Shown: positions 32,714-49,629 of the stretch, one piece after another
Layout: every line of letters begins with the position of its first letter
Numbering within the stretch: the stretch's first letter is position 1
Source: an uncultured Pseudomonadales bacterium
GTDB taxonomy: Bacteria > Patescibacteriota > Microgenomatia > UBA1400 > MFAQ01
Assembly (NCBI GenBank): GCA_964357975.1
Contig: CAYHNG010000001.1
Span: 47,007 to 111,006, forward strand
Length of the DNA: 64,000 nucleotides
Direction: 5' to 3'
Made by a program: the position numbers and the translations under genes
Notes under the pieces: model-generated
The model's input: only the letters and a program-made list of their open reading frames with translations
Told to the model about the DNA's origin: nothing
Databases searched by the model: none

Positions 32714-34117
32714 CTAAATTTCCAGGTCACGGAGCAGATTTATTTTTATTGAGCTTTTCTCGTTTGATTTTTGGGCGCCGTAAATCCACCCGAAAGCTTC
32801 GTCTGCAGGACACGATACCGGTTTACCGGCATATGACCGGAAGAGATAGCACCAGCCACCGTATGCTGAGTAGCCAACTTCATCTTTTGTTCCTAAAATG
32901 ATGGAATATGGTTGGTTTTGAATATCTTTGGTAACTTTGATAATTCTTTCCTTTCGGGACACCAAACCATACTTTGATTGTTCACAAGTGAAAATGGTAA
33001 CTGCAGAGGAGAGAACAAAAATAAGAATTAGGAACCAGGAAATTTTCGGGTTTAATGAAGAAAGAAGTATCCCCGAAAAAACGGAAAATAGGGTGAAGAA
33101 GCTGAGGAGGTAGTATTCGATCACGTTACCGGGATAAAGAAGATACGAGATAATTGAAATAATAAGCATCGCAAAAAGAAGCAAGAATTTTTTGTCTCTC
33201 TTGGCTCTAAAAAAAGAAAAAACTAAGATTCCTAAAGAAAAGGATGACAGAAGAAAGACGGAACCGGTGGGTACCCCCGCGCCTCCAAAGCCCATTTCTG
33301 CCTGAACTGACGTCCGAGGACGTAGATACCAGAAACGACTAAGCGAGTTCCAGGTGGTGGATAAACGGCTTGGCAATCTATCTATTATCGAGATATCGCC
33401 TTGTGCTGTGAGCATGCGAAGTGGGGTACGCAGATTGTCGAAATTATGGACCTTGTCGAAGACAAGAAGTGGAGAAATCAAAATTAGATATACGACGATG
33501 GAAGATATCCACGTACTAAAATTGATTCTCTTGAAGGATTTAAAAACGAGAAAGAAAATTACCGGCCAGAACATGAGCAGTGAAAGGTGAATATGGAGCG
33601 CCGTAGCCATAATGGCTGAAACGAGAACAAACCAACGAGTATTTTTCTGAGATTTGTATAAAGAAAATAACAACCAAACCGTAAGTAGCGGAATGGGAGA
33701 TGGATTCCAGAAACGACGATCAAAGAAATTCAAGAGAGGAGATCCTGCGTAAAAAAATGAAGAAAAAATGGCTACCGATGGTGAAAATAGTCGAGATGAA
33801 ACAAAGTATATGGAAATAACCGTAGCCAGACCGAGTAGGGGGGCGAAATAGGCAAGAATAAGAGGATCTCCTCCGGAGAAGAAGAATAAGAGAGCGTTTA
33901 AATAGGTGAACGCAGGCCCGAGATAAAAGCCGGTATTTCCGGCGCTTACTCCAATCCAGATGGGGTGAAAATCCTGAACCTGTGACCAAGCAAGAAAGGC
34001 TTGATATTCTTCATCAAAATTGAAACTAAACCACTCACCTGCTTTCCAAAAACGGAGAAAGAGAAGAAAGACAAATAATAAAACCGGAAGAATGTGAACC
34101 GGTTTTATTTTTGTCAT
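32714..34117 (-). CDS. ArnT/GT83-like GT-C membrane glycosyltransferase
   Basis: FSFNFDEEYQAFLAW...GNTGFYLGPAFTYL resembles the ArnT DE-x-RYAE motif; polytopic. Confidence 0.6.
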   Translation of the reverse strand: MTKIKPVHILPVLLFVFLLFLRFWKAGEWFSFNFDEEYQAFLAWSQVQDFHPIWIGVSAGNTGFYLGPAFTYLNALLFFFSGGDPLILAYFAPLLGLATVISIYFVSSRLFSPSVAIFSSFFYAGSPLLNFFDRRFWNPSPIPLLTVWLLFSLYKSQKNTRWFVLVSAIMATALHIHLSLLMFWPVIFFLVFKSFKRINFSTWISSIVVYLILISPLLVFDKVHNFDNLRTPLRMLTAQGDISIIDRLPSRLSTTWNSLSRFWYLRPRTSVQAEMGFGGAGVPTGSVFLLSSFSLGILVFSFFRAKRDKKFLLLFAMLIISIISYLLYPGNVIEYYLLSFFTLFSVFSGILLSSLNPKISWFLILIFVLSSAVTIFTCEQSKYGLVSRKERIIKVTKDIQNQPYSIILGTKDEVGYSAYGGWCYLFRSYAGKPVSCPADEAFGWIYGAQKSNEKSSIKINLLRDLEI

Positions 34118-34138: not shown

Positions 34139-35242
34139 CTATATTAATCTTTCCCAGGGATACTCCGAATGGCCGAAGTGGCCGTACCTGGCAGTTTTTT
34201 GATAAATGGGCTGTAGCAAAGCGAGACCGGAAATGATGCCGGCGACGGAAAGATCCAACAGCTTCCAGGCAAAATCTTCGATGATTTTTTGATCTTTTTT
34301 GTTGGTGCCATAAGTTTCTATGGCCTTTCCCACCGGATCTTTGACACCGATGGCATAGGCCAGCTGGACTTCGCAACGATCGGCCAATTTGGCGGCCACG
34401 ATATTCTTGGCAATAAATCTGGCGGCATAGGCCCCTGACCGATCGACCTTCGTAAGATCCTTGCCCGAAAAACAACCTCCGCCGATTCTGCCCATACCAC
34501 CATAGGTATCGACGACAATTTTCCGGCCGGTAACTCCCGTATCCGAAGCAGGACCGCCAATTTCCCAAGCACCTGTGCCGTTGAAGATCACATTTTTGAG
34601 GGAGATTTGGGGCAGGTGATATTTTTCGAGAAGCGGGACAATTGAAAGTTTGTAGAGATACTCTTTGATTTCCTCGCGGGCCATCTTCGGATCTTGGGGT
34701 TTGGCTAAGACAATTTTCTCGACCGAAATCGGGCGACCATTTGCGTATTTAACGGTGACTTGAGATTTTCCGTCCGGGCGGAGAAAAGGTAACTCTTTCA
34801 CAAACAACAAATCCATGGACTCTGCGAGCTCGTGGGCCAGAGTAATGGGGAGCGGCATGAGCTGTGCGGTCTCATTGGTGGCGTAACCAAACATCATACC
34901 CTGATCCCCTGCTCCCCCATCGTCAACGCCAACGGCAATATCTTTGGACTGTTCATGGATGTAAACCTCGATATCGGTTTGAGGACCAAAGCGGTATTCG
35001 TCTCGGGTATAGCCTAAGTCCCGAATAACTTTTTTGGCTAGGCTTTGGTAATCGAGTGAACGGGGACAGGTAATCTCCCCGGCCATAATCAGCTTGTTGG
35101 TAGTCACAAGCGATTCACAAGCCACACGAGAATGTGGATCGGCCTGGAGAGCGGCATCTAATACGGCATCCGAGATCTGATCACAGATCTTATCCGGGTG
35201 GCCGGCGCAAACGGACTCAGACGAAAAGAGGGAATAGTTCAT
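34139..35242 (-). CDS. metK: S-adenosylmethionine synthetase
   Basis: SESVCAGHPDKICDQISDA, GAGDQGMMFGYA and GGGCFSGKD hallmark motifs. Confidence 0.95.
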   Translation of the reverse strand: MNYSLFSSESVCAGHPDKICDQISDAVLDAALQADPHSRVACESLVTTNKLIMAGEITCPRSLDYQSLAKKVIRDLGYTRDEYRFGPQTDIEVYIHEQSKDIAVGVDDGGAGDQGMMFGYATNETAQLMPLPITLAHELAESMDLLFVKELPFLRPDGKSQVTVKYANGRPISVEKIVLAKPQDPKMAREEIKEYLYKLSIVPLLEKYHLPQISLKNVIFNGTGAWEIGGPASDTGVTGRKIVVDTYGGMGRIGGGCFSGKDLTKVDRSGAYAARFIAKNIVAAKLADRCEVQLAYAIGVKDPVGKAIETYGTNKKDQKIIEDFAWKLLDLSVAGIISGLALLQPIYQKTARYGHFGHSEYPWERLI

Positions 35243-35345
35243 TTTATTTTTCCTCTAATTGATAACAGAGGCTTGTCATTTTGGCACCGCGACCTGAATT
35301 GGCTCGGTTGTCGTCCGCCTATGGCGGAACTCTTGACAGCTAGGA
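35243..35345 (-). ncRNA. Candidate SAM riboswitch (SAM-I/SAM-IV clan) in the metK 5' leader
   Basis: The minus-strand RNA reads GCUGUCAAGAGUUCCGCCAUAGGCGGACGACAACCGAGCCAAUUCAGGUCGCGGUGCCAAAAUGACAAGCCUCUGUUAUCAAUUAGAGGAAAAAUAAAAAUG. It contains UCAAGAG (P1/J1-2), CAACC...GGUGCC (the P3 strands of SAM-I/IV) and AUGACAAGC, which can close P1 against GCUGUCA. A downstream CCUCU...AGAGG hairpin can sequester the probable Shine-Dalgarno sequence. Confidence 0.45.
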
Positions 35346-35364
35346 TAATATTAACACGAAATGA

Positions 35365-36495
35365 TTAGGCTACGAAGTAGCCGCGTGTGAAGAAAATGAT
35401 GGAGAGAATGGATAAAACGATGCAAGTGGCATAGAGACTGTACTTAATGAAGGGATGTTGTTTCTCGATCCAAAACGCCATGACCATGAACACCGGGAAA
35501 AGCACTAATGTAAATCGGGGCATGCTCATAAAGGTACCTGAAAATGTGGGCAGCAAGAAAGACAGCAAAACAAATAGCCAGTAAGAGAAACGAATTCTTC
35601 TAAAGAAAATAATTAAAGCGGTGACAATCAACACGGCCGAAAACAACTCCAAGACGACGGTAAAGTAGAGAGGGTCCCAGTCGGTAAAAATTAACATTTT
35701 GAAATAGCGGAAGAAGACCTGGTGGAGAAGAATTAGTTTGTCTACTGTCCGGCCACCAAAGACAGATTGAATGTGGAAAAAGAATAATGGATCTCCGGTT
35801 TTGAGATATTGAAAACGCATAAAAGAAAAAAGCCCTAGTGGAGGAAGAAGTAACCACAGAGCAGAAAAATTAACAGACTTTTTTATATCTTTGCCGTACA
35901 TGAGCCAGAACTCGTAAATAATGGAAGGCCAGAGAAAGATACCGGTGATCCGGGTGGCCGAAGCGATCGCGGCCACAACACAGGCCAGAAAAAAGTGTTG
36001 GCGGCGAATAAGGTAAAAAGTGAGAACCGTCAGTAGAAGAAACAAAGACTCGGTGTAGACCGAGCCAAAAAAGAAGGCCGTGGGAAATAAGAGTATCAAC
36101 ATAATAGTAAGGCGAGAGACCTTCTTAGTGAAGTCCAGCGCGGTTAGACGATAGAGGAAATAAAGAGCCAGGATGAGATAGACATGAGAGAGAAAGAGCC
36201 CCGAAGCCAGGTAATTGCCGAATAGATTGAAAGTTCTTACTGTCCAAGGATAAACCGGGAAGAAAGCATAGTCCATGTCGGTCTTGTGCTGATAGCCATA
36301 ACCAAACTGAGCAAGGTCAAGATAATGAAGGCCATCAAAGTTGGACCACATGGAAAAAATGTTTCCGACAGAGGGCTTTTCGGTGAGACTCGTGAAACGG
36401 GTACGGGGAGGCAGAAGAAACATGGCCGGGAGAGCGATGAGAATAATCAGAACTCGCCAACCTAAAACGAGTTTGAAGATTTCTTTGATGGACAT
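35365..36495 (-). CDS. Polytopic membrane protein, putative GT-C mannosyltransferase-like (PIG-V/DUF2029-like)
   Basis: 376 aa, about 10 TM helices, conserved HYLDLAQFGYGY loop; assignment tentative. Confidence 0.4.
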   Translation of the reverse strand: MSIKEIFKLVLGWRVLIILIALPAMFLLPPRTRFTSLTEKPSVGNIFSMWSNFDGLHYLDLAQFGYGYQHKTDMDYAFFPVYPWTVRTFNLFGNYLASGLFLSHVYLILALYFLYRLTALDFTKKVSRLTIMLILLFPTAFFFGSVYTESLFLLLTVLTFYLIRRQHFFLACVVAAIASATRITGIFLWPSIIYEFWLMYGKDIKKSVNFSALWLLLPPLGLFSFMRFQYLKTGDPLFFFHIQSVFGGRTVDKLILLHQVFFRYFKMLIFTDWDPLYFTVVLELFSAVLIVTALIIFFRRIRFSYWLFVLLSFLLPTFSGTFMSMPRFTLVLFPVFMVMAFWIEKQHPFIKYSLYATCIVLSILSIIFFTRGYFVA

Positions 36496-38177
36496 TACGG
36501 TTTTGTCACTCCATTTCTAAGTCGAGAAATTACACGCTCTTCCCCCATTACTTGCATCATTTCGTATAGATCTGGTGTCATGGTCTTTCCAGATAGCGCA
36601 ATGCGAAGGACCATCGCTACGTCGCCAAGATGACCTCTGTATCCTTGTGTATTACTCTTGTATTCTTTCATAGATGACGCATACCCAAGTGATAAGCACA
36701 CCACTTTTAGTTTCTCAAACCAGATCTCTTTTGTGTCTGAATAGTGATAGCTGGTCAGAAATTTCTTGATAATTTCTTTGACTTTCAATGGGTCGGTAAT
36801 GTTTTCGGTGGTAATTGGAAAAACTGCTTGATCAAAAATTTCATCGTAGAAGAATCCGAACAAGTCAGGTATCTGAGACCATTGTGAGATATCTTTTCTA
36901 TTTTTATCTCCTTCGCGCTCAATGTTGAGAATGCTAATTGAATACTCTTTATCCATTGTAAATATGCGATGAAATTCAGAGTTGAACTTTTGAGACCAAT
37001 CACATACCAATGAATATATCTCATCGACCTTCATGGTAGAAATTTCTTGCTTGCAGATATCCAAGAACTTAACCATATCAAACAGGGCCCCAGATGATCC
37101 CATGTGGACAAGGGTGAGGGGGAAATCCAAAAGCGAGGTGTGTGGATTCTCCTTCCTCCATTTTTCAAATCCGGAATCGGCGATGTTCAACACATAAGCT
37201 CTGACTGCTTTTGCGGGAATACCAAGTTTAAGATAATAAGAAGTATCAGCCTCCGGATCTTTTCTCTTGCTAAGCTTTCTTTTGGTGGTCTCTCCGTCCA
37301 TTTTCATGACTGGGGATAAATGTCCGAATTTCGGTCGATCCCAACCAAAAGCATCAATGATCTGCAGATGAAGTGGTAACGAAGGTAGCCATTCATCGCC
37401 ACGAATTACTTGGTTAACCCCCTGCAGATGATCGTCAACCATAGCGGCCAAATGATAGACAGGTAATCCTAGTCCTGTTGAAGCAGACTTCATTAAGACA
37501 TAGTCGGTATCATTTCCCGGAAGTGTAACTCGACCCTTTATAGAGTCGGTAAAAGTGGAGACAGTGAAATTCAGTGGTGAGCGGAAGCGGATGGCAAAGG
37601 TTTCTCCAGCGGCTAACTTGTCTTTTATGTTGTCGAGAGAAAGGTTTCGGCATGCGGCGTACTTACCGTAATACCCCGTTCTTTCTTTGTTGGAAACTTG
37701 AGTCTGTCGAGCTAATTCAAGTTTCTCGGCATTACAGAAACAAGGATAGGCCATACCCCTTTTTAGTAGGGTTTTGATGGCCGATAAGTAGACTTCCTGT
37801 CGATGACTTTGGATGTATGGTCCATATTGACCGACCTCCTCGTCTCCTAATATGGGTCCTTCGGAATATTGGACACCAAATTCCCTTAAAGCAGTGATTA
37901 TTGTTTTTATTCCGCCAACAACTTCCCTATTTTTATCTGTATCTTCGATCCTTAAAAAAAAGACACCGCTACTCAAGTGAGCAATTTGCTCATTCACCAT
38001 CGAGGTGAAGATCAGTCCAAAGTGAGCAAAACCGGTAGGGCTGGGAGCGACACGAACCACCAGAGCACCTTCTGGTAGCTTCCTTTTTGGATAACGGAGC
38101 TCGATCTCTGAGAGTTCGAGGGTGGATTCCGGAACAAGCAGCTTCGCTAATTCAGTGTTGGTTAATTTGTCTACCAT
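36495..38177 (-). CDS. gltX: Glutamate--tRNA ligase
   Basis: VVRVAPSPTGFAHFG (HIGH-type) and KLSKRK (KMSKS) motifs; 560 aa. Confidence 0.9.
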   Translation of the reverse strand: MVDKLTNTELAKLLVPESTLELSEIELRYPKRKLPEGALVVRVAPSPTGFAHFGLIFTSMVNEQIAHLSSGVFFLRIEDTDKNREVVGGIKTIITALREFGVQYSEGPILGDEEVGQYGPYIQSHRQEVYLSAIKTLLKRGMAYPCFCNAEKLELARQTQVSNKERTGYYGKYAACRNLSLDNIKDKLAAGETFAIRFRSPLNFTVSTFTDSIKGRVTLPGNDTDYVLMKSASTGLGLPVYHLAAMVDDHLQGVNQVIRGDEWLPSLPLHLQIIDAFGWDRPKFGHLSPVMKMDGETTKRKLSKRKDPEADTSYYLKLGIPAKAVRAYVLNIADSGFEKWRKENPHTSLLDFPLTLVHMGSSGALFDMVKFLDICKQEISTMKVDEIYSLVCDWSQKFNSEFHRIFTMDKEYSISILNIEREGDKNRKDISQWSQIPDLFGFFYDEIFDQAVFPITTENITDPLKVKEIIKKFLTSYHYSDTKEIWFEKLKVVCLSLGYASSMKEYKSNTQGYRGHLGDVAMVLRIALSGKTMTPDLYEMMQVMGEERVISRLRNGVTKP

Positions 38178-38276
38178 TTTTTGTCAGAGTCGATTGTTAC
38201 GGCTAATTCCCGACAATTCTGCATTCAAATTATATCGCATTTGGATAACTCCTATCCACGCGCCACCATTTTGGAT

Positions 38277-38303
38277 TGATAGGGAGAAAAGCTATGATAT
38301 AAT
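38277..38303 (+). promoter_or_regulatory. Sigma-70-like promoter with an extended -10 (TGaTATAAT) driving the small ORF
   Basis: TTGATA at 38277-38282 and TGATATAAT at 38295-38303. A divergent TATAAT for gltX lies on the other strand at about 38231-38236. Confidence 0.4.
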
Positions 38304-38337
38304 AGAGGTGTTACAAATTTAAGAAAAGGAGTATGTT

Positions 38338-38418
38338 ATGAATAACTTCGTTTATAACGCTGGTCCTGAGGACGAAGGTGACGATACTGAAGATGGTGGT
38401 GGGGGCTGGGAACACTAG
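38338..38418 (+). CDS. 26-aa acidic small ORF (MNNFVYNAGPEDEGDDTEDGGGGWEH) forming a mini transcription unit
   Basis: AAGGAG at 38326-38331, 6 nt upstream of the ATG; open for 26 codons to a TAG at 38416-38418; the terminator follows immediately. Confidence 0.4.
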   Translation: MNNFVYNAGPEDEGDDTEDGGGGWEH

Positions 38419-38438
38419 TATTGAGTGAGCATCCGAAC

Positions 38439-38462
38439 AACCGCCCAAACTGGGCGGTTTTA
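38439..38462. terminator. Rho-independent terminator hairpin (CCGCCCA-aac-TGGGCGG + TTTT), probably bidirectional
   Basis: 7-bp GC-rich stem followed by a T-run on the plus strand. It sits between the converging small ORF and the GT4 gene, overlapping the GT4 stop. Confidence 0.55.
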
Positions 38463-39500
38463 AATTGCGAGGTTTGATTGTTTCAGGACATTTTGATACA
38501 CGTCGAGGGTGAGGCGGGCGGTTTTGGACCAGGAAAATTCTTTGGCTTTATCTTTGGCCAATGAGATTTGCCTAGCTTTAGCACTGGAGGAAAGATGAAG
38601 CGCTTTATTTATGGATCTTTCCATTGATTTAAGTCTTTTAGGATTAAAGGTAATGGCTTCGTCGTGATAAATCTCCGGTAGGCTGGAGGTCTTCGAGCTG
38701 GCTATTAGGCAACCGGAAGTCATGGCCTCCAGAAGCGGCAAACCAAAGCCTTCGTAATATGATGGCTGAACATAGAGAGAGGCCAGATGGAACATGGTGT
38801 TGAAATCTTCGTTGCTGACATACCCGGGATAAATGACGTGGTTGTAAACTTGAAGGCGAACCAGGTCAATGAGCTCCGGGTGAACCGGCTTGACCACTTC
38901 TTTGAGCATTCCCTTTCCGACAATCACCAGAGGGATTCCCAGTCGGTCGGTAACTTCCGCAAGAGAGGGTAAATTTTTGTTGGGATTGGGTCCGGCCGCT
39001 AAAGTTAGGACAAATTTGTCAGGTAGATTGAACTTCTTCTTGACCTCGGCGAGCTTGGCCGGTGACGGAAGAACTTTGTAGTCATCATCAACCGCGAGCG
39101 GAGTAACAAAGATTTTTTCCGGAGAAACTCGAAAATACTTTTCGATATCCCGCTTGGAACTTTCGGAGTCGGTAATAATGGCTGAGACAGAGCGAAGCGA
39201 ATACCATTGTCGAAGTAGATTGATAGTGCCCTTGATCCCTTTGGGATAGCGAGCCGCCATAACCAGAGGAGTGAGATCGTGAATGGTGACAATGGTTGGT
39301 TTGTCTTTTTTTAGAGGCAGGGTGGGATAAAAAAGATCAAAGAAGGGATAGTGGATAATGTCGGGATCTTTGTCTGTTAATTTGACGTCGGAGAGTTTTC
39401 CCAAAGATTGGATTAGGTGGTCGGCATAAATGCCCACTCCCCTACCGGAAGAATGATCACCACCAGCAATAAAGACTTTAACGGGGGGCATATTCTTCAT
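38460..39500 (-). CDS. Glycosyltransferase family 4 (GT-B)
   Basis: EGFGLPLLEAMTSGCLIASS signature. Confidence 0.8.
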   Translation of the reverse strand: MKNMPPVKVFIAGGDHSSGRGVGIYADHLIQSLGKLSDVKLTDKDPDIIHYPFFDLFYPTLPLKKDKPTIVTIHDLTPLVMAARYPKGIKGTINLLRQWYSLRSVSAIITDSESSKRDIEKYFRVSPEKIFVTPLAVDDDYKVLPSPAKLAEVKKKFNLPDKFVLTLAAGPNPNKNLPSLAEVTDRLGIPLVIVGKGMLKEVVKPVHPELIDLVRLQVYNHVIYPGYVSNEDFNTMFHLASLYVQPSYYEGFGLPLLEAMTSGCLIASSKTSSLPEIYHDEAITFNPKRLKSMERSINKALHLSSSAKARQISLAKDKAKEFSWSKTARLTLDVYQNVLKQSNLAI

Positions 39501-40380
39501 CTTTATATAATTCCCAAAGCTTCATATAAGAAAAGGCATGGTGCAGACCGGAGTAAAGCGAAAATACAAAACCGGGAAAACCATCGAGGAAACCGCGGTA
39601 ACGGAAGTAGAGACCTAAGAAAGTAGCCAGTGGTTTGAAGAATAAATAGTTGAGAGTATTGAAGAAAGTAATTTTGACACCTGCGGTTTTCATTTGGGTA
39701 GCTTTGAGACTGGAATAGCGATTCTCTCGAAGAAGATAGCGCGAGAAAGTGGGTGTACCAAAATGGTTCATGTCGGACTTTAGCCAGCCGACAGTCCCAC
39801 GAACAACCATCTGTTCGTGAACGTCTTTTCCGGGAAGCTCGGCTTTACCTCTTTGGAAGAGCCTGATGACCGGATCCGGGTACTGTCCTGCATGCATAAG
39901 AACACCCTTTAAAAAGTAGTTCTTTCGGGGAAGCCAGTAGGCGGCGGCTGGCTCCCTCAGTATCTTTGGTTCAGGAAAAAACATGCCGACCGGCAGGCAG
40001 GCTTTTACAAATTTATTGACTGATTTTTTGAGAGGAGAGATCCAGGAATCATAGCCAGAATAGCTGCCATCGAGAATGCCAACAACTTCTCTCTTCATCT
40101 CGGGCGTGATCACCTCATCGGTGTCTAACTGTAAAATCCAATCTGATTTTGCGTGATCATTGGCAATTTTCTTTTGAATATGAAAAATGGGGCTGTTCTC
40201 GCGGATCAAGACTTTGGCGCCCAGCTTTTTGGCAATTTCGGCGGTTTTGTCTGTGGAAGTGCCGTCTACAACGATAATCTCGTCGACCCAATCCTTGACG
40301 GAATTCAGGCAATCGGCAATACAATCCTCGTTATTGTATGAGGCCATAGTGACCGAGATGGTTTGACGTTTGGATTTCAT
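39478..40380 (-). CDS. Glycosyltransferase family 2
   Basis: ISVTMASYNNED...DEIIVVDGTSTD...LQLDTDE; paralogous to 502-1437. Confidence 0.8.
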   Translation of the reverse strand: MKSKRQTISVTMASYNNEDCIADCLNSVKDWVDEIIVVDGTSTDKTAEIAKKLGAKVLIRENSPIFHIQKKIANDHAKSDWILQLDTDEVITPEMKREVVGILDGSYSGYDSWISPLKKSVNKFVKACLPVGMFFPEPKILREPAAAYWLPRKNYFLKGVLMHAGQYPDPVIRLFQRGKAELPGKDVHEQMVVRGTVGWLKSDMNHFGTPTFSRYLLRENRYSSLKATQMKTAGVKITFFNTLNYLFFKPLATFLGLYFRYRGFLDGFPGFVFSLYSGLHHAFSYMKLWELYKDEEYAPR

Positions 40381-42053
40381 TTGGTGGAGAGGAATTTGTA
40401 CATGGGATGGCCGGCGGGGTCGTTTATCGTATAAATAACGGCCTTGTCGTCGACCGACTCATCAGCTGAGATTATAAGGGTATTGGGCAGTTTTTTGTCC
40501 TCTCCGTAGTTAATGGAGCGAAATTCGAACTTGCCGAAGCTCCGGACGGTCGAAAAACCGAACTTGTCTCTGGGAGTCATGACTAGCTCTGACTGAAGTA
40601 CTCTTGGATCATACTTCAGGAAAAAGGCCATTAAAATATATGGCTGGTCGTAGCGGTCGGAGATGAGGATGCGATCGTAGTTGTAATACTGTTGACCTAC
40701 ATACTCTGCGATTTGGTCAAAGCCATACTGCCAGGCGTAAGGGAGTACTTTGGGATAATGGACATAGTAGAGGTGTAAGTACCTGGCTACCGAGTAGCCT
40801 CCAAAAAGAAACACAATGAAGCAAACACCGGATACCAACCATTTTTTCTGTGTCCTGAGCAAGAGGTTTACAAAGACCGCAAGACCGAGAGCCGAGATCA
40901 CTGAAAGAGGAATAACCATATTCTGAGAGCGCAACGCGTGGGGGGACTGAAAGGTGAGAGCGGCCGCCAGCGGAGAAATAAGGAACCAGATAAAAATAAA
41001 CTTTTTCCCTTTGGAATCTAATTTTAGTAGAGAGAAAAGTCCGAGAAAATAGAAGGGAACCAGGAATAGATAAGATTGTCCTGTTTCGGGAACCTTACTC
41101 CGGGCAATCTCGTCTCCGGTAACAAAAAGGAATCGGGGAGAAAAATGAGCTAAATAATTTTTGACAAATCTGAGACCATATGAAAGATATTGGTTGTGTA
41201 GCGCCTTGATGGCGATTGTTTCTTGTGGGTGTGCCCGGCGCATCTCCAATGCTTGCCAGAGAGGACCAGTATCGGAAAAGACCGAGACACCGGAAAAGCG
41301 GGACTGCCCTTCTTTGGAAAGAAGTTGACTGGCGATGGGCAAAGAAAGAAGAAGTCCGAGAAACACAGAAATCATTAGGGCGCGAATATTAGTGGAGACT
41401 AGTTGGCGCCAGTAGAGAATGACTAGCGTAAGAGCCAGAAGCGGAGAGATGATTCTGGCCGAGTGGTAGGTATATAGACTGACAGCAAAGGCCGTAACAA
41501 AAAGGTAAAAATATTTTGTCTGCTTGCCGGTAGGAACTGTTTTTTCGATAGCCTTAAAGAAGGACCATAGTCCGAGTAGGATGAAAAAAAGTGCAGCATT
41601 AACCTCCCAACCACCTCTTGAGAACTGAAGATGCCAGGGTGAAACCGCCAGGACAAGGGCTGATAATAATGCAAACCTCTTGGTTTTAACGTGACACTCT
41701 TCATCTTGAGTATCTTTCCGGAATAACAAATTAACGAGCAAAAATAATAAATAAACGGAGGCGGTGCCCAATAGCGCGGAAGGAAGGCGAACGGACCAGA
41801 CAGTGGGACCAAGTAGTTTAACAAAAGGCAGGACCAGATAAAAATAGACCGGTGGCTTGTAATCATCAAAGGATCTAAACACCAGGGGCCAAGAAACTGA
41901 GTGTTCGTCTTTGCCCGTTTCCAGAAGCGACCAGGCGTTGTAACCGATAGCGGCTTCATCGGCGTTTAGACCGGCCGGAAACCGGTCTAAAGCGAATAGT
42001 CTGAGGACTGATGCCAAAATGAGTATGAGGATGATGGGAAGATGTTTTTTCAT
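40377..42053 (-). CDS. PMT/GT39-family GT-C glycosyltransferase, tandem paralog 1 of 6
   Basis: MKKHLPIILILILASVLRLF...GLNADEAAIGYNAWSLLETGKDEH...FRSFDDYKPPVYFYL...SVRLPSALLG, about 11 TM helices and a roughly 130-aa C-terminal soluble domain. ATGA-coupled to the upstream gene. Confidence 0.75.
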   Translation of the reverse strand: MKKHLPIILILILASVLRLFALDRFPAGLNADEAAIGYNAWSLLETGKDEHSVSWPLVFRSFDDYKPPVYFYLVLPFVKLLGPTVWSVRLPSALLGTASVYLLFLLVNLLFRKDTQDEECHVKTKRFALLSALVLAVSPWHLQFSRGGWEVNAALFFILLGLWSFFKAIEKTVPTGKQTKYFYLFVTAFAVSLYTYHSARIISPLLALTLVILYWRQLVSTNIRALMISVFLGLLLSLPIASQLLSKEGQSRFSGVSVFSDTGPLWQALEMRRAHPQETIAIKALHNQYLSYGLRFVKNYLAHFSPRFLFVTGDEIARSKVPETGQSYLFLVPFYFLGLFSLLKLDSKGKKFIFIWFLISPLAAALTFQSPHALRSQNMVIPLSVISALGLAVFVNLLLRTQKKWLVSGVCFIVFLFGGYSVARYLHLYYVHYPKVLPYAWQYGFDQIAEYVGQQYYNYDRILISDRYDQPYILMAFFLKYDPRVLQSELVMTPRDKFGFSTVRSFGKFEFRSINYGEDKKLPNTLIISADESVDDKAVIYTINDPAGHPMYKFLSTK

Positions 42054-43708
42054 TAAGGTTTGGTTTTGATGACCCGAAAGAGAATGTGATGATCTGGAGT
42101 TTCGATTTGTCTAAACAGATCCACGTTAGGTCCGGTAATATCGAACTGATTGTTGATATTTCCCTCAGATCCGATAAAGAGAGTGTCTTTTTGAGTCATC
42201 ATGTCGGAAGAGCCAAACTGGTGGAACTCAACACTACCGACTTTGTCCACTTTTCCGACGTCCAAACCGCCGCTAATAAAATCGTTATTTTTTTGATAAG
42301 TAGCCGGGTCATATGCGGTGTAAAAAACGTAATAGATATATGGCTGACCGTAGACATCGGTAAAGACAACTTTCTTGGCCGGATGGTCTTTAATAATTTG
42401 AACTACCTGCTTGTAGCCGTAGTTGAACTCTTTGGAAAAGACAGTCTGGGAATGAAAAAAGTACACATCAAAGACGTATATTGCGCATAGGGTGTAGATA
42501 CCGGCAATGAGTGCGAAGAATATTTTTGAATTTGTATAAAGATAATAGATACCCAGACCAGCAATTATAGAGAGTGGAACAACCATAAAGAGAGCTCTGA
42601 CGGTGGAGAACTCAGCCAAAGTCAGTGAGGCGGGAATGGGCGAGATAAGAAGCAGTCCGAGAATTAATGCCGTTGTTCTGTCCGGGGTGTCATGACTACC
42701 TGGAGAAAGGTTTTTGACTAGCCAGATAAAACCTAGAACTAACCAGATGAACTCTAAAGGATTGAGCGCTCCCAATCCGGGAAGGTGTCCCCTTTCGGAA
42801 ACAATGGGGCCTTCGTAGAAGAGGACTTCGGGTGAAAAGTGATACAGATAACGGGAGAGAACAAGCCTAGTTGAAAGTTCTTTTTGGTTATGGAAAAGAT
42901 TTAAGGAGGTAGAATTTTGATTGTCTATCTCCCTTGTTATTTGGGGTATCCCCGGTTTGTAGTTGAAGATGCTCAGAGTTGTAAGCCGATTACCGGCGCT
43001 GCCAAATACAGAACCGAAGAAAATCCAGAGACCAAACAGAATAAATGGAAAAAGCGACAACAGCTTTTTGGGCTTTAGATATGGAGTAAAACTAGACCAA
43101 AATTCTTTCCAGTAAATAACAAGAAAAAGTAGAAAGACCAGAGGAGTTAAAAGTTTGGCCGCTTGGTACATGGCCAACGAGAGACAAGCCAATAGCAAAG
43201 AGGGGTAGAGAGCTGATTTTCCCTTTAGAAACCGGAGAAAATAGTAAAGAGCAAAAATGGTCAGCGTGGTGAAAACGTTTACTTCCCAAGCCCCGTGACC
43301 AAAGTGCACCGCCCACGGAGAAATAGCGAGGGCCAGAGCCGCAAAAGAACCTGGTTTGTGGGTGGATTTGGTGGAGAAAATTTCGTTAGTGAGAAGATAG
43401 ATGCCGAAGATGGCGAGAATGCCGGCAAGAGCGCTAGGGAAACGAACTGCAAATTCATTGAGACCAAAGATGGCCACCGAGGGGACCGCAAGATAAATAT
43501 AAGCACCTGGTTTGTAATCTCCAAAACTCTTGAAGACTAAGGGCAAGAAAGCGCCGTGTTCATCCCGCCCGGTCTTCAGCAGGGAGTAGGCGTTGTAACC
43601 GATGGCCGCCTCGTCCCAAGTGAGCCCGTTTGGGACGGACGACAATTGCCACAAACGAAGAAACGTTCCTAGTAGTAGGGCAATGATCAAAAGAATATAT
43701 TTCTTCAT
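42053..43708 (-). CDS. PMT/GT39-family GT-C glycosyltransferase, tandem paralog 2
   Basis: GLTWDEAAIGYNAYSLLKTGRDEHG...FKSFGDYKPGAYIYL; divergent C-terminal domain; TAATG coupling. Confidence 0.75.
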   Translation of the reverse strand: MKKYILLIIALLLGTFLRLWQLSSVPNGLTWDEAAIGYNAYSLLKTGRDEHGAFLPLVFKSFGDYKPGAYIYLAVPSVAIFGLNEFAVRFPSALAGILAIFGIYLLTNEIFSTKSTHKPGSFAALALAISPWAVHFGHGAWEVNVFTTLTIFALYYFLRFLKGKSALYPSLLLACLSLAMYQAAKLLTPLVFLLFLVIYWKEFWSSFTPYLKPKKLLSLFPFILFGLWIFFGSVFGSAGNRLTTLSIFNYKPGIPQITREIDNQNSTSLNLFHNQKELSTRLVLSRYLYHFSPEVLFYEGPIVSERGHLPGLGALNPLEFIWLVLGFIWLVKNLSPGSHDTPDRTTALILGLLLISPIPASLTLAEFSTVRALFMVVPLSIIAGLGIYYLYTNSKIFFALIAGIYTLCAIYVFDVYFFHSQTVFSKEFNYGYKQVVQIIKDHPAKKVVFTDVYGQPYIYYVFYTAYDPATYQKNNDFISGGLDVGKVDKVGSVEFHQFGSSDMMTQKDTLFIGSEGNINNQFDITGPNVDLFRQIETPDHHILFRVIKTKP

Positions 43709-45432
43709 GGAATAGAAGTAATTATAAACGCCGGAGACCCGTCTAAGTAATTCACCGTCTTAATGACATGGGCGTTGACCGGGACGTGACCCGCAGAAGT
43801 AATCAAGAGGCTTCTCTGTGTGGAGATCTCTCCTCCACTCTCCAGAGGAAGAGTCTTGATGGAAGTGACCGGAATCTGCCAATCGTTGACAAAATAAACA
43901 TTGTCTATCTTATCCGTCCAGTACCAATCCGATTTTTGGAAACGAATATTGTCTTTGTTTGGCTGAACAATTTTCGGCTCTATCCGATCAAAGAAGGCGT
44001 AAAAAATATGCGGCTCTCCGAAACGTTTGGTGATAAAAAAGCGATCGTATTCGTGCCGATGATCTTGGACATAGGTCATTACTTCCGCGTAGCCAAATTG
44101 CCAGGACGCAGAATAGGTAGTAGCATAATTCCCAAAATACTGTCTAAGGTAAAACCCGAAGGAGACACCAATCCACAGAGCCAACAAAATCAGAGAGAGT
44201 CTAGTAAATTTGTGAGGAATAAACCTCAACAGCCGGGATAAACCCAGACCGGCAAAAATAATGATGGCCGGGATCATAGGATTTGGACGGAGTGCTTGCG
44301 GAGGATCGATGGTCAGACTGGCCGCGACTGGGGAAAGGAGTAACCAAGCATAGAGGAATTTTAGAGATTCGGAACCTCGCAATAACGACAGGTGTGATAA
44401 AAAACCAAGAAGAGCCAGTAAGAAGACGGGGAGAGTTAAAAGGTTTTGGCCGGGAATGGCAAACTGGAACTGGGCCCCCCATTGTTGGGAGAAAAACTGA
44501 GGTGAGAAATAGCCGATATAGTTCTTGGTAAAAGTAGTGAAAAAATAAACAGGACGGTTATAAACCAATTTAGAGACGAGTGGACCCAGAGAACTTTGAG
44601 ACCTTTGCTCCCCAATTTGAAAAACAGTGGCCGGTGAAAGAATCTTGAGCTTTTCATAACGAGCCGTACCTGCCCCAAGAAAGACCTGATATATGACTAG
44701 CCCAGAGAAAAGGAGTGCGAGAACAAGAGAGGTGATTAGTGCAAAGTGGTTGGTGCGAGGTGCACGAAGATTGGGACGAAAAATAAGAAAAGAGACCACC
44801 ACGAGCAAAGGCACAAAGACGCGGGCAGTGTTGTAGGTATGCAGAGAGAGGCCTAACAGTATAACGGAGGGGAGTAAAGAGGTTTTTGTTTGGTGGATCC
44901 CCGCCTTCGCGAGGATGACACTATCGGAACTGTGGAAGAATTTTAGTAAGAAGTAGAAGCCGAAGATTATTAAAGTAAGAGATAGATTGGCTTCTAAGGC
45001 CGGGCGAGAGATGAAGAAATGCCAGGGAGAAATGGTGAGGAGAAGCGCAGTAATTAGTGCGAAGTGTTTGGTTTTTTGAGAAAAAAGCTCGCGGGTTAGA
45101 AAATAAATTCCCGGAATGGCAAGAGTGCCGGCGAGAGCAGAGATAAATCGAACCGAAAAAGTACTAAGACCAAAAAGCCAGACAGGAATGGTGGTGAGAT
45201 AAATATATAAAGGTAGCTTGTAATCCCCGAAGGCTCGAAAGATTAGAGGAAACCTAACTCCCCACTCGTCTCTCCCGGTGAGCAAAATGGAATAAGCATT
45301 GTACCCATGACTCGCTTCATCCCAATTCAAGGCGACGGGAAAAGCGTCTAATTTCCAAAAGCGGAGTAGACCACCAAGCAAGGTGAACAAAAACAGCAGT
45401 AATAGTGGCCGATTATTAATAATGGACTTCAT
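43705..45432 (-). CDS. PMT/GT39-family GT-C glycosyltransferase, tandem paralog 3
   Basis: ALNWDEASHGYNAYSILLTGRDEWG...FRAFGDYKLPLYIYL. Carries an in-frame copy of the 25-nt repeat, encoding SVILAKAGIH in a loop. Confidence 0.75.
   Translation of the reverse strand: MKSIINNRPLLLLFLFTLLGGLLRFWKLDAFPVALNWDEASHGYNAYSILLTGRDEWGVRFPLIFRAFGDYKLPLYIYLTTIPVWLFGLSTFSVRFISALAGTLAIPGIYFLTRELFSQKTKHFALITALLLTISPWHFFISRPALEANLSLTLIIFGFYFLLKFFHSSDSVILAKAGIHQTKTSLLPSVILLGLSLHTYNTARVFVPLLVVVSFLIFRPNLRAPRTNHFALITSLVLALLFSGLVIYQVFLGAGTARYEKLKILSPATVFQIGEQRSQSSLGPLVSKLVYNRPVYFFTTFTKNYIGYFSPQFFSQQWGAQFQFAIPGQNLLTLPVFLLALLGFLSHLSLLRGSESLKFLYAWLLLSPVAASLTIDPPQALRPNPMIPAIIIFAGLGLSRLLRFIPHKFTRLSLILLALWIGVSFGFYLRQYFGNYATTYSASWQFGYAEVMTYVQDHRHEYDRFFITKRFGEPHIFYAFFDRIEPKIVQPNKDNIRFQKSDWYWTDKIDNVYFVNDWQIPVTSIKTLPLESGGEISTQRSLLITSAGHVPVNAHVIKTVNYLDGSPAFIITSIP
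44896..44920. repeat. Hairpin repeat copy R5 (identical 25-mer to R1), in-frame inside PMT paralog 3
   Basis: Exact 25/25 match to 25365-25389. Encodes SVILAKAGIH in an inter-helix loop of the 43705-45432 protein. Confidence 0.8.
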
Positions 45433-47119
45433 AATAAAGAGGTTCGCCGGAAGGCAAGCTAATTATGTCACCAATCGCAGCCACAGAACGAATATCACTG
45501 GTGTCTACCTCCGGGCGGGTCAGATAATAGTGGGCATTGGGAAGAGGGTTGATGGGCTTGTTTTGGTAATCAATCATGGTGGCAATATAAAGATCGGAGT
45601 CCCCTATCCTGTTTCCGTCCAAATTGAAGTTTCCCGAAGTAGAGTTGTAGACAGTGTGCTGTAGTTCAAACTCTTGAAATTTGCGTGGGTTAAAACCGGT
45701 GTAATAAAGATAAAAAATCAAAGGGTATTCGTACTTGGGAGAAATGATCACCGGTTCACCAGGATGCCGACTGACGGATTGCATAAGTTCTTGCATTCCG
45801 GCGCTCCATGATCTTTCTGAGGTATAGCGATAATGAGACCAATAGTCATGTAGATATAAAGAGGAATCGGCAAAAAGTAAAAGAAGTACTAAAGCCGTTA
45901 GCCACTTTGAGTAAGAGAACAACTGATCAAAACCAAAAGAGACAACCAAGACCAAAGGCAGTATGAGCATAAAAATCCGAGAGGAATGGGTGGCTCCATC
46001 TCTCGTCAGAGCAGAAGGAAGAATGGCGGCAACGGAAAGGACTACGACAAAAAGGAGGAACTTGGCGTGTTTCCCTGCGGCTAATCGGTAAAGACCATAA
46101 AGCAGGGGAATAAGAAGGGCTTTCTCCAGCATGCCCCAACCCTGCACCGCGTGTCGAGGATTCGTATCCCCTTGAAGGAAGAGATAGTCGAAAGAGATGG
46201 GACTGACGACATTTTTGATAAACACCTGAAGAACGGACAAAACTTTGTTATGGGTGGCTTTACTAATTAGGTCGGTAGTTGAGCCAACCGGTGCTGATGG
46301 ACCAAGATCTTCTTTCCTCAAAAAATTAATTTCGGTAGGTATCGTGGGGTCGGTAAAAATAGAGATCTCGTTGAAACGCCTAGCAGCTCCACCGTTGATA
46401 ACTACCACCCCTAGAGGAATAAAGAGAATAATTAGCCATAGAGAAAGTTTCTTTCCCCACAAATGTTCTTTGGTACCAGGAAGGAGGAGGAGAACTAGGG
46501 GGATAAAAAGTAGAGCCAATTTGGCCGTGCTGTAGATCATAGGAGTAAGAGAAAACAATATCAAAGAGACGATAATAGCCCAGACTCTTTTGTGGATTAA
46601 GAAATGAGTGTAGAAAAATAAACCGGCCAGATAAACCGTAAATAACATAGAGAGCTCAAAGCCTATACGAGAGTAAGTAAAGTGCCAGGGAATAATTGAC
46701 AAAACCAAAGCAGACCAAAAACCGAAAGAGGATCCGGTTTTTGGGGATGAAAATCCAAATAATTTAGAGAGATTATTAGCCAGGAAAAATATCGCCACGA
46801 TTCCTAGTATGGAGAAAATGGCCGGAGTAAGGCGAATAGCCAAATCCATAGTAACACCAGGTATCAGTGAGACTAGGGCGGTAGCGTATATGGGTAAGGC
46901 TGTGCGAACATCAGAAAAAGAGTGAAACTGCAGAGGAAGGAAATTTCCTTGATAATCTTTTCCCGTCGACAAAAAGGAACGGGCTTGATAACCGATGTCC
47001 ACCTCATCGGAAAAAAGACTGATCGGATTTTGTTGTAAGCCGGATAGCCTAAGACTAGCTCCTACCAGAAGAACCAAGAATAATGGCCAGTACCGGCTAA
47101 AGAGGTCTTTTATTTTCAT
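45416..47119 (-). CDS. PMT/GT39-family GT-C glycosyltransferase, tandem paralog 4
   Basis: SLFSDEVDIGYQARSFLSTGKDYQG...FHSFSDVRTALPIY. Confidence 0.7.
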   Translation of the reverse strand: MKIKDLFSRYWPLFLVLLVGASLRLSGLQQNPISLFSDEVDIGYQARSFLSTGKDYQGNFLPLQFHSFSDVRTALPIYATALVSLIPGVTMDLAIRLTPAIFSILGIVAIFFLANNLSKLFGFSSPKTGSSFGFWSALVLSIIPWHFTYSRIGFELSMLFTVYLAGLFFYTHFLIHKRVWAIIVSLILFSLTPMIYSTAKLALLFIPLVLLLLPGTKEHLWGKKLSLWLIILFIPLGVVVINGGAARRFNEISIFTDPTIPTEINFLRKEDLGPSAPVGSTTDLISKATHNKVLSVLQVFIKNVVSPISFDYLFLQGDTNPRHAVQGWGMLEKALLIPLLYGLYRLAAGKHAKFLLFVVVLSVAAILPSALTRDGATHSSRIFMLILPLVLVVSFGFDQLFSYSKWLTALVLLLLFADSSLYLHDYWSHYRYTSERSWSAGMQELMQSVSRHPGEPVIISPKYEYPLIFYLYYTGFNPRKFQEFELQHTVYNSTSGNFNLDGNRIGDSDLYIATMIDYQNKPINPLPNAHYYLTRPEVDTSDIRSVAAIGDIISLPSGEPLYYEVHY

Positions 47120-48789
47120 TTGTACTTCGGATTCGTTTTTAATATTCTCAAGGCCACCTTTCCGTCGGGAAAGGGTATTTCTTTGATTATAGACAAATTG
47201 TGATCTTTTATTTGAACTTCCGACATGGCTAGATAGTCTGCTACCAAATACTGCTCTACAGCGTCCGTGTCGGGTCCCCAGACAATACTTTTAACGGTAA
47301 TATTTCCCAGTTTTTTGGTGTCGCTTCTGTTGAGACTGGTATAGTAATCTGCGGCTGAGACCTCAAAGTTTTCGCGTTGGTAGAGAGCGGGGTCGTATTT
47401 GAGGAAAAACATCATCAGGATATAACTATCTCCTCGCGAACTGTCCACCACGATGGGAAGTTGTGGATTAAGACCGGGAATCTCTTTGACTACCAACTCC
47501 CAACCATAGTTCCAGAACTTGGAATTGAAATAATCGTTAAAGTAAAAAATGGAGATAAACATCCTCACCGACGAAAAAATCACGAGAAGAGTAATGAGCG
47601 ATAATTTCAACTTTGAAGATATGGATGGAAGAATCTCCCAGAGTTTAATAAGACCAAAAGAAATAATCAGAATCTGGGGAATAACCAAAGGAAGCGATCG
47701 AAGAGTTGAGTAAGGATCTCTTGTGAGGGCGGCGGGAATGGGAGACGCTAGGAGAAGTGTAAAAACATAGAAAGTAAGATCTTTCAGGTGTCTTTCTTTG
47801 AAGAGAAAATACAACCCAATCAGATATAGAGGGAATTGCCAAACAAAAAAAGTTCCCAGACCGGGATAGGGCAATCGAGGTCCCGAGTCCCCCAGAGAAA
47901 ACATATAGCGGGGGGAAAGATAAGAACCATAGAGGGAAAGGAACTCCTTAAATGCCAAAATCTGAGGATTGTTTGTGAGATCGTGAACGAGACCTTTTCC
48001 CTCCTGATAACCCCAAACATTTTTCCCTGAAGCGGCAAAAATATTTAAGGCGGCTGAGCGCGCCTGGAAACCGGGAGTTCCGATAATTTGAAGAGTTGGA
48101 AGAAAAATAACGAAGGCTAAGACCAAACTAACAAGAATTGGGGTTAGATGATGTTTTAGTTCAGAAAATATGACCGGGGAATAGCGTAGTACGAACACAA
48201 CGAGGAGTACGGGGACGATAATTATTTCTGCCCGATAGGCCATCATGGAAATCACAAAAGATAAAGCGGCCGGAAGAAATAACCAAGATTTTTTAAGAGC
48301 ACTCATGATAAAAGGAGATCCCAGCAATAAGAAAAACAAAGCGACGTTGGCTTCATAAGCCGTACGACTATAGTTAATATGCCATGGAGAAATGGCCAGG
48401 AGAAAAGTAGTTACTAGTGCAAGGTGGTTGGTGCGAGGTGCAAGCTGACGGACCAGCAGATAGAGCAAGGGTAGGCTAAGAAAACCGAAAAGGGCTGATG
48501 GAAGTCTGACCGAGAAAACAGAGAGATCTAAAAAATGAATGATAGGAATCAGAAGGTAGGAATAAACCGGGCTCTGAAAAGTGGAAAAGGAGCGAAACAT
48601 GACGGGCAACCACTTGCCATACTCGTCCATGTCGGTTTTGAAGACTGAATAAGCGTTGTAGCCAAGTGAAGCCTCGTCCACGTACAGTCCGAGCGGAGTT
48701 TGCCCTAGTTTGTAAAAGCGGAAGAAGGCTCCAAGCAACAAAGCCAAAAATAAGAGAATCGCCGGTAGATATTTATTTGCTTGTTTCAT
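47116..48789 (-). CDS. PMT/GT39-family GT-C glycosyltransferase, tandem paralog 5
   Basis: GLYVDEASLGYNAYSVFKTDMDEYG...FRSFSTFQSPVYSYL. Confidence 0.75.
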   Translation of the reverse strand: MKQANKYLPAILLFLALLLGAFFRFYKLGQTPLGLYVDEASLGYNAYSVFKTDMDEYGKWLPVMFRSFSTFQSPVYSYLLIPIIHFLDLSVFSVRLPSALFGFLSLPLLYLLVRQLAPRTNHLALVTTFLLAISPWHINYSRTAYEANVALFFLLLGSPFIMSALKKSWLFLPAALSFVISMMAYRAEIIIVPVLLVVFVLRYSPVIFSELKHHLTPILVSLVLAFVIFLPTLQIIGTPGFQARSAALNIFAASGKNVWGYQEGKGLVHDLTNNPQILAFKEFLSLYGSYLSPRYMFSLGDSGPRLPYPGLGTFFVWQFPLYLIGLYFLFKERHLKDLTFYVFTLLLASPIPAALTRDPYSTLRSLPLVIPQILIISFGLIKLWEILPSISSKLKLSLITLLVIFSSVRMFISIFYFNDYFNSKFWNYGWELVVKEIPGLNPQLPIVVDSSRGDSYILMMFFLKYDPALYQRENFEVSAADYYTSLNRSDTKKLGNITVKSIVWGPDTDAVEQYLVADYLAMSEVQIKDHNLSIIKEIPFPDGKVALRILKTNPKYK

Positions 48790-49605: not shown

Positions 49606-49629
49606 GATAGTCAATTAGAATTATATGCG

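Follow-up and report, generated by a model that had tools for sequence, protein, structure and literature searches.

The 64,000-nt stretch of contig CAYHNG010000001.1 analysed here (the window) harbors, at 38276-38462 on its plus strand, a mini-gene of 26 codons equipped with its own promoter, Shine-Dalgarno (SD) sequence and terminator-like hairpin, and lying head-to-head with gltX, the gene for glutamyl-tRNA synthetase (GluRS). The promoter comprises the -35 hexamer TTGATA (38276-38281) and the extended -10 element TGaTATAAT (38295-38303; TG at 38295-38296, TATAAT at 38298-38303), with a 16-nt spacer and an 11/12 match over both hexamers. In our scan of both strands of the window (128 kb), it was the sole match of at least 11/12 that also carries the TG, and it reads as a strong sigma-70-type promoter. 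The start site inferred from the -10 distance gives a 5' untranslated region (UTR) of ~26-27 nt (38311-38337), in which the SD sequence AAGGAG (38326-38331) leaves a 6-nt gap to the ATG at 38338. The open reading frame (ORF), 38338-38418 including its TAG (38416-38418), encodes MNNFVYNAGPEDEGDDTEDGGGGWEH. The hairpin, AACCGCCCA-AAC-TGGGCGGTT (38439-38459, with its tail to 38466), is GC-rich and 9 bp long, 7 bp forming the core; its predicted energy is -15.1 kcal/mol, and TTAAATT follows it. From these signals, the predicted product is a monocistronic mRNA of ~155-190 nt directed away from gltX and issued from one of a back-to-back promoter pair. The extended -10 element, the AAGGAG 6 nt before the ATG and the 26-codon ORF had been picked out in an earlier note on this DNA and are all present; of the 7-bp GC hairpin and T-run that it also described, the hairpin stands, the 7 bp being its core, while the T-run is short (4 U), and the peptide's share of acidic residues, put there at about 35%, was counted as 8 of 26 (31%).

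On one side, gltX (36495-38177, minus strand) encodes a 560-amino-acid (aa) protein matching Pfam PF00749 (tRNA-synt_1c) and PF19269 (Anticodon_2), and a promoter scan placed its promoter, TGGATA-18-TATAAT, at 38258-38229 on the minus strand, back to back with that of the mini-gene. On the other side, the stop codon of a GT4 glycosyltransferase gene (38460-39500, minus strand) abuts the hairpin. As both neighbors are minus-strand genes, gltX and the mini-gene diverge, whereas GT4 and the mini-gene converge; the description of the locus as a divergent-promoter region between the two genes is thus right for the gltX side and wrong for the GT4 side. The space between them (38178-38459; 282 nt) is the largest true intergenic space of a ~97%-coding window, a rank that it holds because an 88-aa ORF was recognised within the sole bigger gap.

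Taken singly, some of these elements are of little weight. AAGGAG occurs 50 times in the window, and its combination with an ATG at SD spacing is met ~4 times in 128 kb, which alone is unremarkable for an intergenic stretch, as is a 26-codon open frame after an ATG. The pattern CCGCCC-N3-8-GGGCGG has one occurrence in the window (0.01 expected), which is the hairpin of the mini-gene. Codon usage was scored against the window's own genes: the log-odds of the mini-ORF, 8.8 bits, lies above 90% of real 25-codon windows and was attained by 0.7% of 138 spurious ORFs of similar length. Judged from sequence, an ordered and tightly spaced series of promoter, SD, ORF and terminator, located in the largest intergenic gap and conserved elsewhere, is far beyond chance.

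Relatives of the locus were obtained by fetching the contigs of GltX homologues singly, and then by a profile search with the peptides found. The nearest GltX among 5.8 billion proteins is 69% identical to that of the window, and therefore no close relatives exist. A unit of the same architecture, divergent from gltX, was found in six other metagenomic contigs (L018, L019, L020, L024, L025 and L026), the GltX proteins of which are ~57-70% identical to the window's over the compared spans. Four of them (L018, L019, L020 and L024; GltX 65-68% identical) display a promoter, an SD, a short ORF ending in GGWEH-stop and a hairpin, divergent from gltX. The peptide profile search recovered two called proteins, P0121 and P0122, on contigs L026 and L025, where gltX lies divergently upstream; cluster members added the variant P0125 and an over-extended 41-aa call, P0124. 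When 1.84 billion protein cluster representatives were searched in full with HMMER, P0121 and P0122 alone came up, plus a low-complexity repeat protein (P0127). Other queries yielded nothing of use: in the first 17 loci, tblastn with the peptide produced only noise; a chimeric sense and antisense query against the 5.8 billion proteins gave no candidate; and viral contigs and JGI metagenomes, queried with the peptide in tandem duplicate, returned nothing, as did a degenerate synthetic alignment query, one of whose two scan patterns spanned an artificial junction. A pattern suited to a scan for the family is GGNGGNTGGGARCAYTAR.

The mini-gene is absent from beside gltX in several related loci. 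An AAA-ATPase gene occupies this place in L004 (66% GltX identity; the sole near relative in the genome-collection scan) and lies upstream in L015; mreB is upstream in L016, L017, L021 and L022, and the mini-gene is missing there throughout the sister clade with this neighbor; TspO is upstream in L023, and P0002 has a 61-nt gap. The L004 contig (CAYTOI010000004.1) bears a taxonomic label that looks unreliable: P0008, P0009 and P0010, from JGI and ENA metagenomes, share 90-91% identity with the L004 GltX, and the window's GltX shares 65-66% with it.

The peptides of the other loci are (M/V)KIYFYGKDPNDEGDDTVDGGGGWEH (L018, with a GTG start), MGELIFKIDPNDEGDDTVDGGGGWEH (L024), MSMFIYQQDPGTDKSGDDGGDDTDQGEGGWEH (L020), MNMFIFHEDPGTDKSGDNGGDDTDQGEGGWEH (L025), MDEFIYQQDPPLGPDTSGDDGGDDSSEGEGGWEH (L019) and MDKFFYQQDPGTGQDTSGDDGGDDSSEGEGGWEH (L026), to which P0125 adds MNKFIYQQDPGPDTSGDDGGDDSDQGEGGWEH. 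Across the seven loci, the lengths are 26, 32 or 34 aa, and the indels (6, 18 or 24 nt) are all in-frame. The family motif reads M-x-x-Φ-Φ-[YF]-x-x-[DG]-P-(0-8 aa)-x-x-x-G-D-D-[TS]-x-x-G-x-G-G-W-E-H-stop, with M1, P10, one Asp of the acidic block, G-D-D, another Gly and G-G-W-E-H invariant in the alignment. Conservation is thus bipartite, with an aromatic/hydrophobic triad (residues 4-6) and x-x-[DG]-P at one end, G-D-D-[T/S]-x-x-G-x-G-G-W-E-H at the other, and 0-8 residues in between.

The six other loci preserve the reading frame, the position of the stop and the last 16 residues, and in all seven the stop directly follows the His. The last eight codons vary almost solely at third positions (e.g., GGT GGT GGG GGC TGG GAA CAC versus GGT GGA GGA GGT TGG GAG CAC), and in the codon alignment of the seven DNA sequences the variable columns number 11, 12 and 25 of 31 at first, second and third codon positions, respectively (Fisher P = 7e-5). 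Pairwise proportions of non-synonymous differences (pN) range from 0.07 to 0.29, and those of synonymous differences (pS) from 0.30 to 0.87, often saturated. By these substitution patterns, the mini-ORF is under purifying selection at the amino-acid level. In-frame indels, third-position substitutions and a fixed stop together argue for an mRNA encoding a selected peptide rather than for a structured small RNA (sRNA). Two tests that the earlier note had proposed, conservation of the frame in related genomes and a bias toward synonymous substitutions, have therefore both come out in favor of the first of its suggestions, an unannotated micropeptide, which the conserved stop and C-terminus support as well.

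The expression signals are retained along with the frame. In the homologues, a -35 element (TTGACA, TTGACC or TTGATA) occupies the same relative position, and the -10 is TATAAT or TATAGT, usually with the TG. L019 has TTGACA-17-TATAAT (12/12) and L020 has TTGACC-17-TGaTATAAT, with similar promoters in L025 and L026; the scores in the window, L019 and L020 are 11-12/12. Measured from the -10, the inferred 5' UTRs span 25-34 nt in the seven loci. An SD (AAGGAG or AAGGAGGTG(A)) stands 5-7 nt before the start in 7/7 loci, with AAGGAG(GTGA) as the extended form, and reaches the maximal 10 nt in several homologues. The terminator hairpin is kept in 6/7 loci, its start 21-31 nt past the stop, at a variable distance and after an unconserved spacer; the stem ACCGCCC/GGGCGGT is present in five, including the window, and a G.U variant in L025. 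The homologue terminators carry 7-8 U, and the L018 copy was flagged by the terminator rule.

This stem is in itself unusual. ACCGCCC/GGGCGGT (window 38439-38459; L018, L019, L020, L024 and L025) is near-invariant, with no compensatory changes, amid adjoining non-coding sequence that cannot be aligned, and its conservation, as judged from these alignments, exceeds what a generic intrinsic terminator needs. Right after the terminator, a second hairpin (GTGCCTGCGAAGCAGGCAC or GTGCCTGTGAAGCAGGCAC) is common to L019 and L020, with a degenerate copy in L025. In L026, the terminator is replaced at 402-668 by GC-rich short palindromes (GTCCCGAGTATGACTCGGGAG, GTCCCGAACTTTGTTCGGGG, GTCCCGACCTTACTAGGTCGGGG), in a segment called as an 88-aa gene that looks like an inserted repeat element and not like coding sequence.

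The strength of the SD is best appreciated against the other genes of the lineage. Among the ~50 genes of the window itself, almost none has an SD. An SD-like 5-mer was found near any early start in 4 of 58 long window ORFs versus 9 of 58 in an interior control, which agrees with the statement of the earlier note that the SD of the mini-gene is stronger than that of most genes in the window. On related contigs, 8 of 45 called starts are clearly SD-led, the mini-gene included. Many gene starts of the lineage show a -10-like TATAAT box ~5-12 nt before the ATG and no SD (L015 7773 and 7750; L016 2905, 7322, 8223 and 9992; L018 1622; L019 1122 and 792; L021 4156; and in the window, e.g., 5632, 43708 and 49614, all on the minus strand), which suggests that leaderless mRNAs are widespread. 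Given the few clear SDs and these leaderless-looking starts, the lineage would use SD pairing selectively; moreover, as the full AAGGAGGTGA is kept for the mini-gene where ordinary genes go without an SD, the anti-SD would still be used for a privileged subset of mRNAs. The view of the mini-gene as the only SD gene in an SD-blind organism is weakened by the several other SD-led genes on related contigs, and the ribosome of the lineage is probably not SD-blind. A comparable case is rpsU of the SD-blind Flavobacteriia, in which this gene, for bS21, stands alone in being strongly SD-led (PMC7797042, PMC9976891, PMC13000453). Membership in that type would call for a genome otherwise free of SDs and for a unique SD-led gene whose product masks the anti-SD. 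The mini-gene is likewise very short and has an extended, conserved SD among ordinary genes that lack one; in contrast to rpsU, it shares its SD with a minority of other genes in the relatives, and its product is acidic and, by Pfam and NCBIfam scans, unrelated to bS21 rather than a basic ribosomal protein.

The window peptide has a mass of 2.8 kDa and a net charge of -8.4, with 8 D/E and 6 G residues; it contains no hydrophobic stretch of more than 3 residues, and neither a signal sequence nor a hydrophobic segment was found in it. The net charge in the family ranges from -5 to -11, with a pI of ~4. AlphaFold assigned no secondary structure (predicted local distance difference test, pLDDT, 57), and we infer a soluble, cytoplasmic, intrinsically disordered and strongly acidic product. 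No match was found in Pfam, NCBIfam, PHROGs or PADLOC; PDB sequences gave one insignificant match (E = 0.41), and the motif GGWEH was not found in 8 million full-text papers.

Overall, we consider the mini-gene, with a probability of roughly 80%, to be a genuine microgene and the founding member of a new "GGWEH" microprotein family (26-34 aa), strongly expressed, disordered, acidic and acting in trans. That it is a real, selected and translated gene is very likely when taken by itself; that the peptide acts freely in trans rather than in cis is the somewhat better-favored option. The mini-gene would be efficiently transcribed and translated, being among the few SD-led genes where most appear SD-less or leaderless, and would be co-expressed with gltX through the shared divergent promoter region. 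The abundant free peptide would then act in trans via two contact elements, (i) the N-terminal triad with x-x-[DG]-P and (ii) the C-terminal block up to GGWEH-COOH. Through the acidic, oxygen-rich loop at its C-terminus and the terminal Trp and His, the peptide would attach to a basic protein surface or to a divalent cation, a mechanism proposed with moderate to low certainty.

Several observations weigh against this reading. The U-tract of the window terminator has only 4 U (TT-AAA-TT) and left the hairpin unflagged by the terminator rule. The ORF was missed by gene callers in 4 of the 7 loci (in the other 3 it is called, and never named), and for the window contig the peptide is absent from the 5.8-billion protein set. 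The known set amounts to 8 distinct peptide sequences from one narrow uncultivated clade, and the absence of the mini-gene from beside gltX in L004, L015, L023 and P0002 indicates a gene that is dispensable or movable. The AlphaFold model was built on an alignment only 3 sequences deep. Finally, the Pfam EF-hand and Excalibur models gave no match to the peptide even at E <= 10, which bears on the cation option. EF-hand-like calcium-binding loops follow DxDxDG (D-x-[DNS]-x-[DNS]-G), with an acidic bidentate ligand at position 12, and the Excalibur motif is DxDxDGxxCE. The C-terminal D-D-[T/S]-x-[D/Q/E]-G-x-G-G-W-E-H has oxygen side chains at positions 1, 3 and 5 and a Gly at 6, as these loops do; in contrast, its acidic bidentate residue is at position 11, it has no hydrophobic residue at 8, and flanking helices are lacking. 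This likeness is a resemblance only, and serves as a lead rather than a finding.

Two other known classes of small peptides were considered and set aside. Pup and UBact are ~50-70 aa long and end in GG[Q/E], the ligated residue. The GGWEH peptide is also small, acidic and disordered, with Gly-Gly near its C-terminus; it ends in GGWEH, however, has 26-34 aa and no hidden Markov model match, and no ligase or depupylase was seen among the scanned neighbors. A type I toxin or small membrane peptide is rejected on account of the net charge of -8.4 and the lack of a hydrophobic transmembrane segment.

The closest general category is that of bacterial microproteins below 50 aa, reportedly covered by catalogues and large comparative screens of unannotated small genes (those of Sberro and colleagues in 2019 and of Storz, Wolf and Ramamurthi in 2014 are said to be among them). 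Like these, the mini-gene falls below gene-caller length cut-offs, is unannotated, and becomes visible through its frame, ribosome-binding site and purifying selection; it is also monocistronic, with a private promoter and terminator. The bacterial microproteins characterised so far are for the most part membrane peptides made of a single hydrophobic helix. In contrast, the GGWEH peptide has no hydrophobic helix, carries a charge of about -8, appears disordered and fits no described family. As far as sequence can tell, the family is new, and the category to which it belongs, small ORF-encoded proteins, is known; in being acidic and not a membrane peptide, it is atypical there. Unannotated small genes are common, and among them the GGWEH family is solid, new and conserved in an uncultivated lineage.

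The case exposes an annotation blind spot, in that a gene with textbook signals and purifying selection across ~65%-identical GluRS proteins is invisible to standard annotation. Prodigal has a minimum gene length of 90 nt, and the mini-gene is shorter. To our knowledge, almost nothing is known about the small proteins of this uncultivated groundwater lineage, from which a soluble, highly acidic and probably disordered family is now added to the bacterial microproteins. The family offers two handles, namely the invariant C-terminal GGWEH and the conserved back-to-back pairing with gltX.

This pairing is seen in 7/7 loci having DNA, the mini-gene being head-to-head with gltX at a start-to-start distance of 88-160 nt. 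An element upstream of gltX, TATAATTTG, is conserved in L018, L020, L024 and L025. The neighbor on the other side differs from locus to locus: the GT4 gene in the window, a 92-aa gene in L019, a convergent 122-aa gene in L025 and, in L018, an ORF with a hydrophobic N-terminus (read by eye). According to the identity matrix and a tree built by the unweighted pair group method with arithmetic mean (UPGMA), the carriers are spread over several deep branches of a single clade whose members share at least 64% GltX identity, which points to long retention of the gene; the pair is probably ancestral to the carrier clade. On this sequence record, the linkage appears persistent and not obligatory, and it may reflect co-regulation, with the back-to-back promoters being shared, a functional tie to GluRS, or simply how small a target the junction offers to rearrangement. 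As to the synthetase itself, the best named relatives of the window GluRS (560 aa) are Clostridia-type enzymes of ~545-550 aa with 45-49% identity, and gltX has one base (36495) in common with the start of the next ORF.

A more specific proposal is that the GGWEH microprotein is a dedicated partner of GluRS or the Glu-tRNA pathway, for instance an acidic, tRNA-backbone-mimicking regulator of a non-discriminating GluRS or of the transamidosome, or a cation-loaded cofactor peptide. We regard this as speculative and unlikely. It would explain why the adjacency to gltX has survived while both outer flanks were reshuffled in every lineage and, if true, the mini-gene would be the first known to encode, next to the gene of its target, a small-protein regulator of a bacterial aminoacyl-tRNA synthetase.

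Among the alternatives to a free trans-acting peptide, the one that survives best is a cis-acting arrest or sensor peptide, the C-terminal ~16 residues of which would stall the ribosome near the stop, as in TnaC and SpeFL, and so modulate termination, read-through, mRNA fate or the gltX promoter. TnaC, SpeFL and SecM are arrest peptides of such length, 26-34 aa being typical; conservation of the mini-ORF peaks in the last 16 residues and is absolute in the five before the stop, with an N-terminal part that varies and takes indels, and the unit has a translation-apparatus gene as its tightly linked neighbor. Like TnaC, SpeFL and the leaders of amino-acid operons, it also combines a strong ribosome-binding site with a terminator hairpin after the ORF. 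In contrast to them, it has no same-strand downstream gene to control in the window, where the next gene converges, no conserved antiterminator and no run of regulatory codons; the terminator, 21-31 nt past the stop, lies outside the footprint of a stalled ribosome, and no conserved alternative pairing was found. Furthermore, the N-terminal triad and P10 are conserved too, in spite of an 8-residue variation in how far they lie from the C-terminus, and the number of Glu codons (2-4) is unconserved, which argues against a Glu-tRNA sensor. A cis-acting role is accordingly held to be improbable, and the leader peptide that the earlier note had offered as an option finds no support, with the GT4 gene on the opposite strand and the downstream neighbor differing per locus.

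A ribosomally synthesized and post-translationally modified peptide (RiPP) precursor or scaffold, in which the N-terminal F-I-Y-x-x-D-P would serve for leader recognition and GGWEH would be the modified core (by a Trp-His cross-link or a tRNA-dependent C-terminal extension), is less probable again. Its small size, strong ribosome-binding site and private terminator would suit such a precursor, as would a bipartite conservation in which a hydrophobic motif marks the N-terminus and an invariant aromatic core the C-terminus. Biarylitides contain aromatic-x-His cross-links, which W-x-H resembles, and LanB-type and PEARL enzymes use Glu-tRNA, the product of the neighboring gltX. Against this, no conserved modifying enzyme, protease or exporter adjoins the mini-gene, its sole conserved neighbor being a full-length and apparently housekeeping GluRS; no NCBIfam or Pfam precursor model matched; and the B12-radical-SAM (S-adenosylmethionine) gene of the window is 11 kb off, inside a sugar-modification cluster.

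It is very improbable that the unit is a non-coding sRNA, with a fortuitous or secondary SD-ATG-ORF and a functional purine-rich body (AAGGAG, GAGGA, GAAGGTGA, GGTGGTGGGGG). Promoter and terminator would equally define an sRNA of ~155 nt, several SD-like or GGA motifs are present, and the window transcript folds better than shuffled controls (z = -2.8). The codon alignment largely refutes this option through its codon-periodic substitutions, in-frame indels and fixed stop position. In addition, the terminator is the only shared structure (RNAalifold covariation term +1.72, unfavorable), individual folds differ, the start-codon hairpin of the window is not conserved, and the 5' UTR and stop-to-hairpin spacer cannot be aligned apart from the SD. 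Rfam gave no match at the gathering score in the whole window nor at E <= 10 in 38150-38520, and the dual-function sRNA envisaged in the earlier note is, with no covariation outside the terminator, neither needed nor supported. Lastly, a 45-codon antisense ORF (38311-38448, minus strand; TTG start 11 nt past the GT4 stop) encoding a small hydrophobic peptide, which is open, scores 7.5 bits in codon log-odds, near the sense frame, and is co-directional with the surrounding operon on the strand of nearly all genes, has next to no chance of being the real gene and is refuted by the substitution pattern across homologues, with variable columns at 25/31 of its first positions versus 11/31 of its third, a TTA codon in L024 that is an antisense stop, no start-site signals, a TTG inside the hairpin loop, and an open antisense frame that is to be expected for a Leu/Ser-free sense ORF.

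The window is otherwise a dense, almost wholly minus-strand island of cell-envelope glycosylation genes. Six large minus-strand ORFs (550-575 aa) follow head to tail within 40377-51312, and the two that were scanned (40377-42053 and 42053-43708) match PMT_2 (ArnT/PMT-like membrane glycosyltransferases). Further stretches of the island lie at 32714-34117, 35365-36495 and 53327-54877, and it also holds GT2, GT4, GT87 and YfhO genes, an epimerase and a flippase-like gene. Contigs identical to the window are present in ENA and Logan, the material being a groundwater metagenome collected on a 0.1-µm filter from the Hainich aquifer. This 0.1-µm groundwater origin and the gene content suggest a member of the Patescibacteria/CPR.

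Two smaller intergenic features were recorded. The 88-aa ORF mentioned above (27090-27356, minus strand) shows, as read from the sequence, a ferredoxin-like Cys pattern (…NKCISAGPCSIVAP…SCPILA…) and fills most of an apparent 320-nt gap beside the B12-binding radical-SAM gene (25404-27035). A scan of the window with Rfam detected neither a SAM riboswitch nor another family in the 122-nt gap at 35243-35364, upstream of metK (34139-35242, minus strand); a hairpin, CCGCCTATGGCGG, and a plus-strand TTGACA box lie in this gap.

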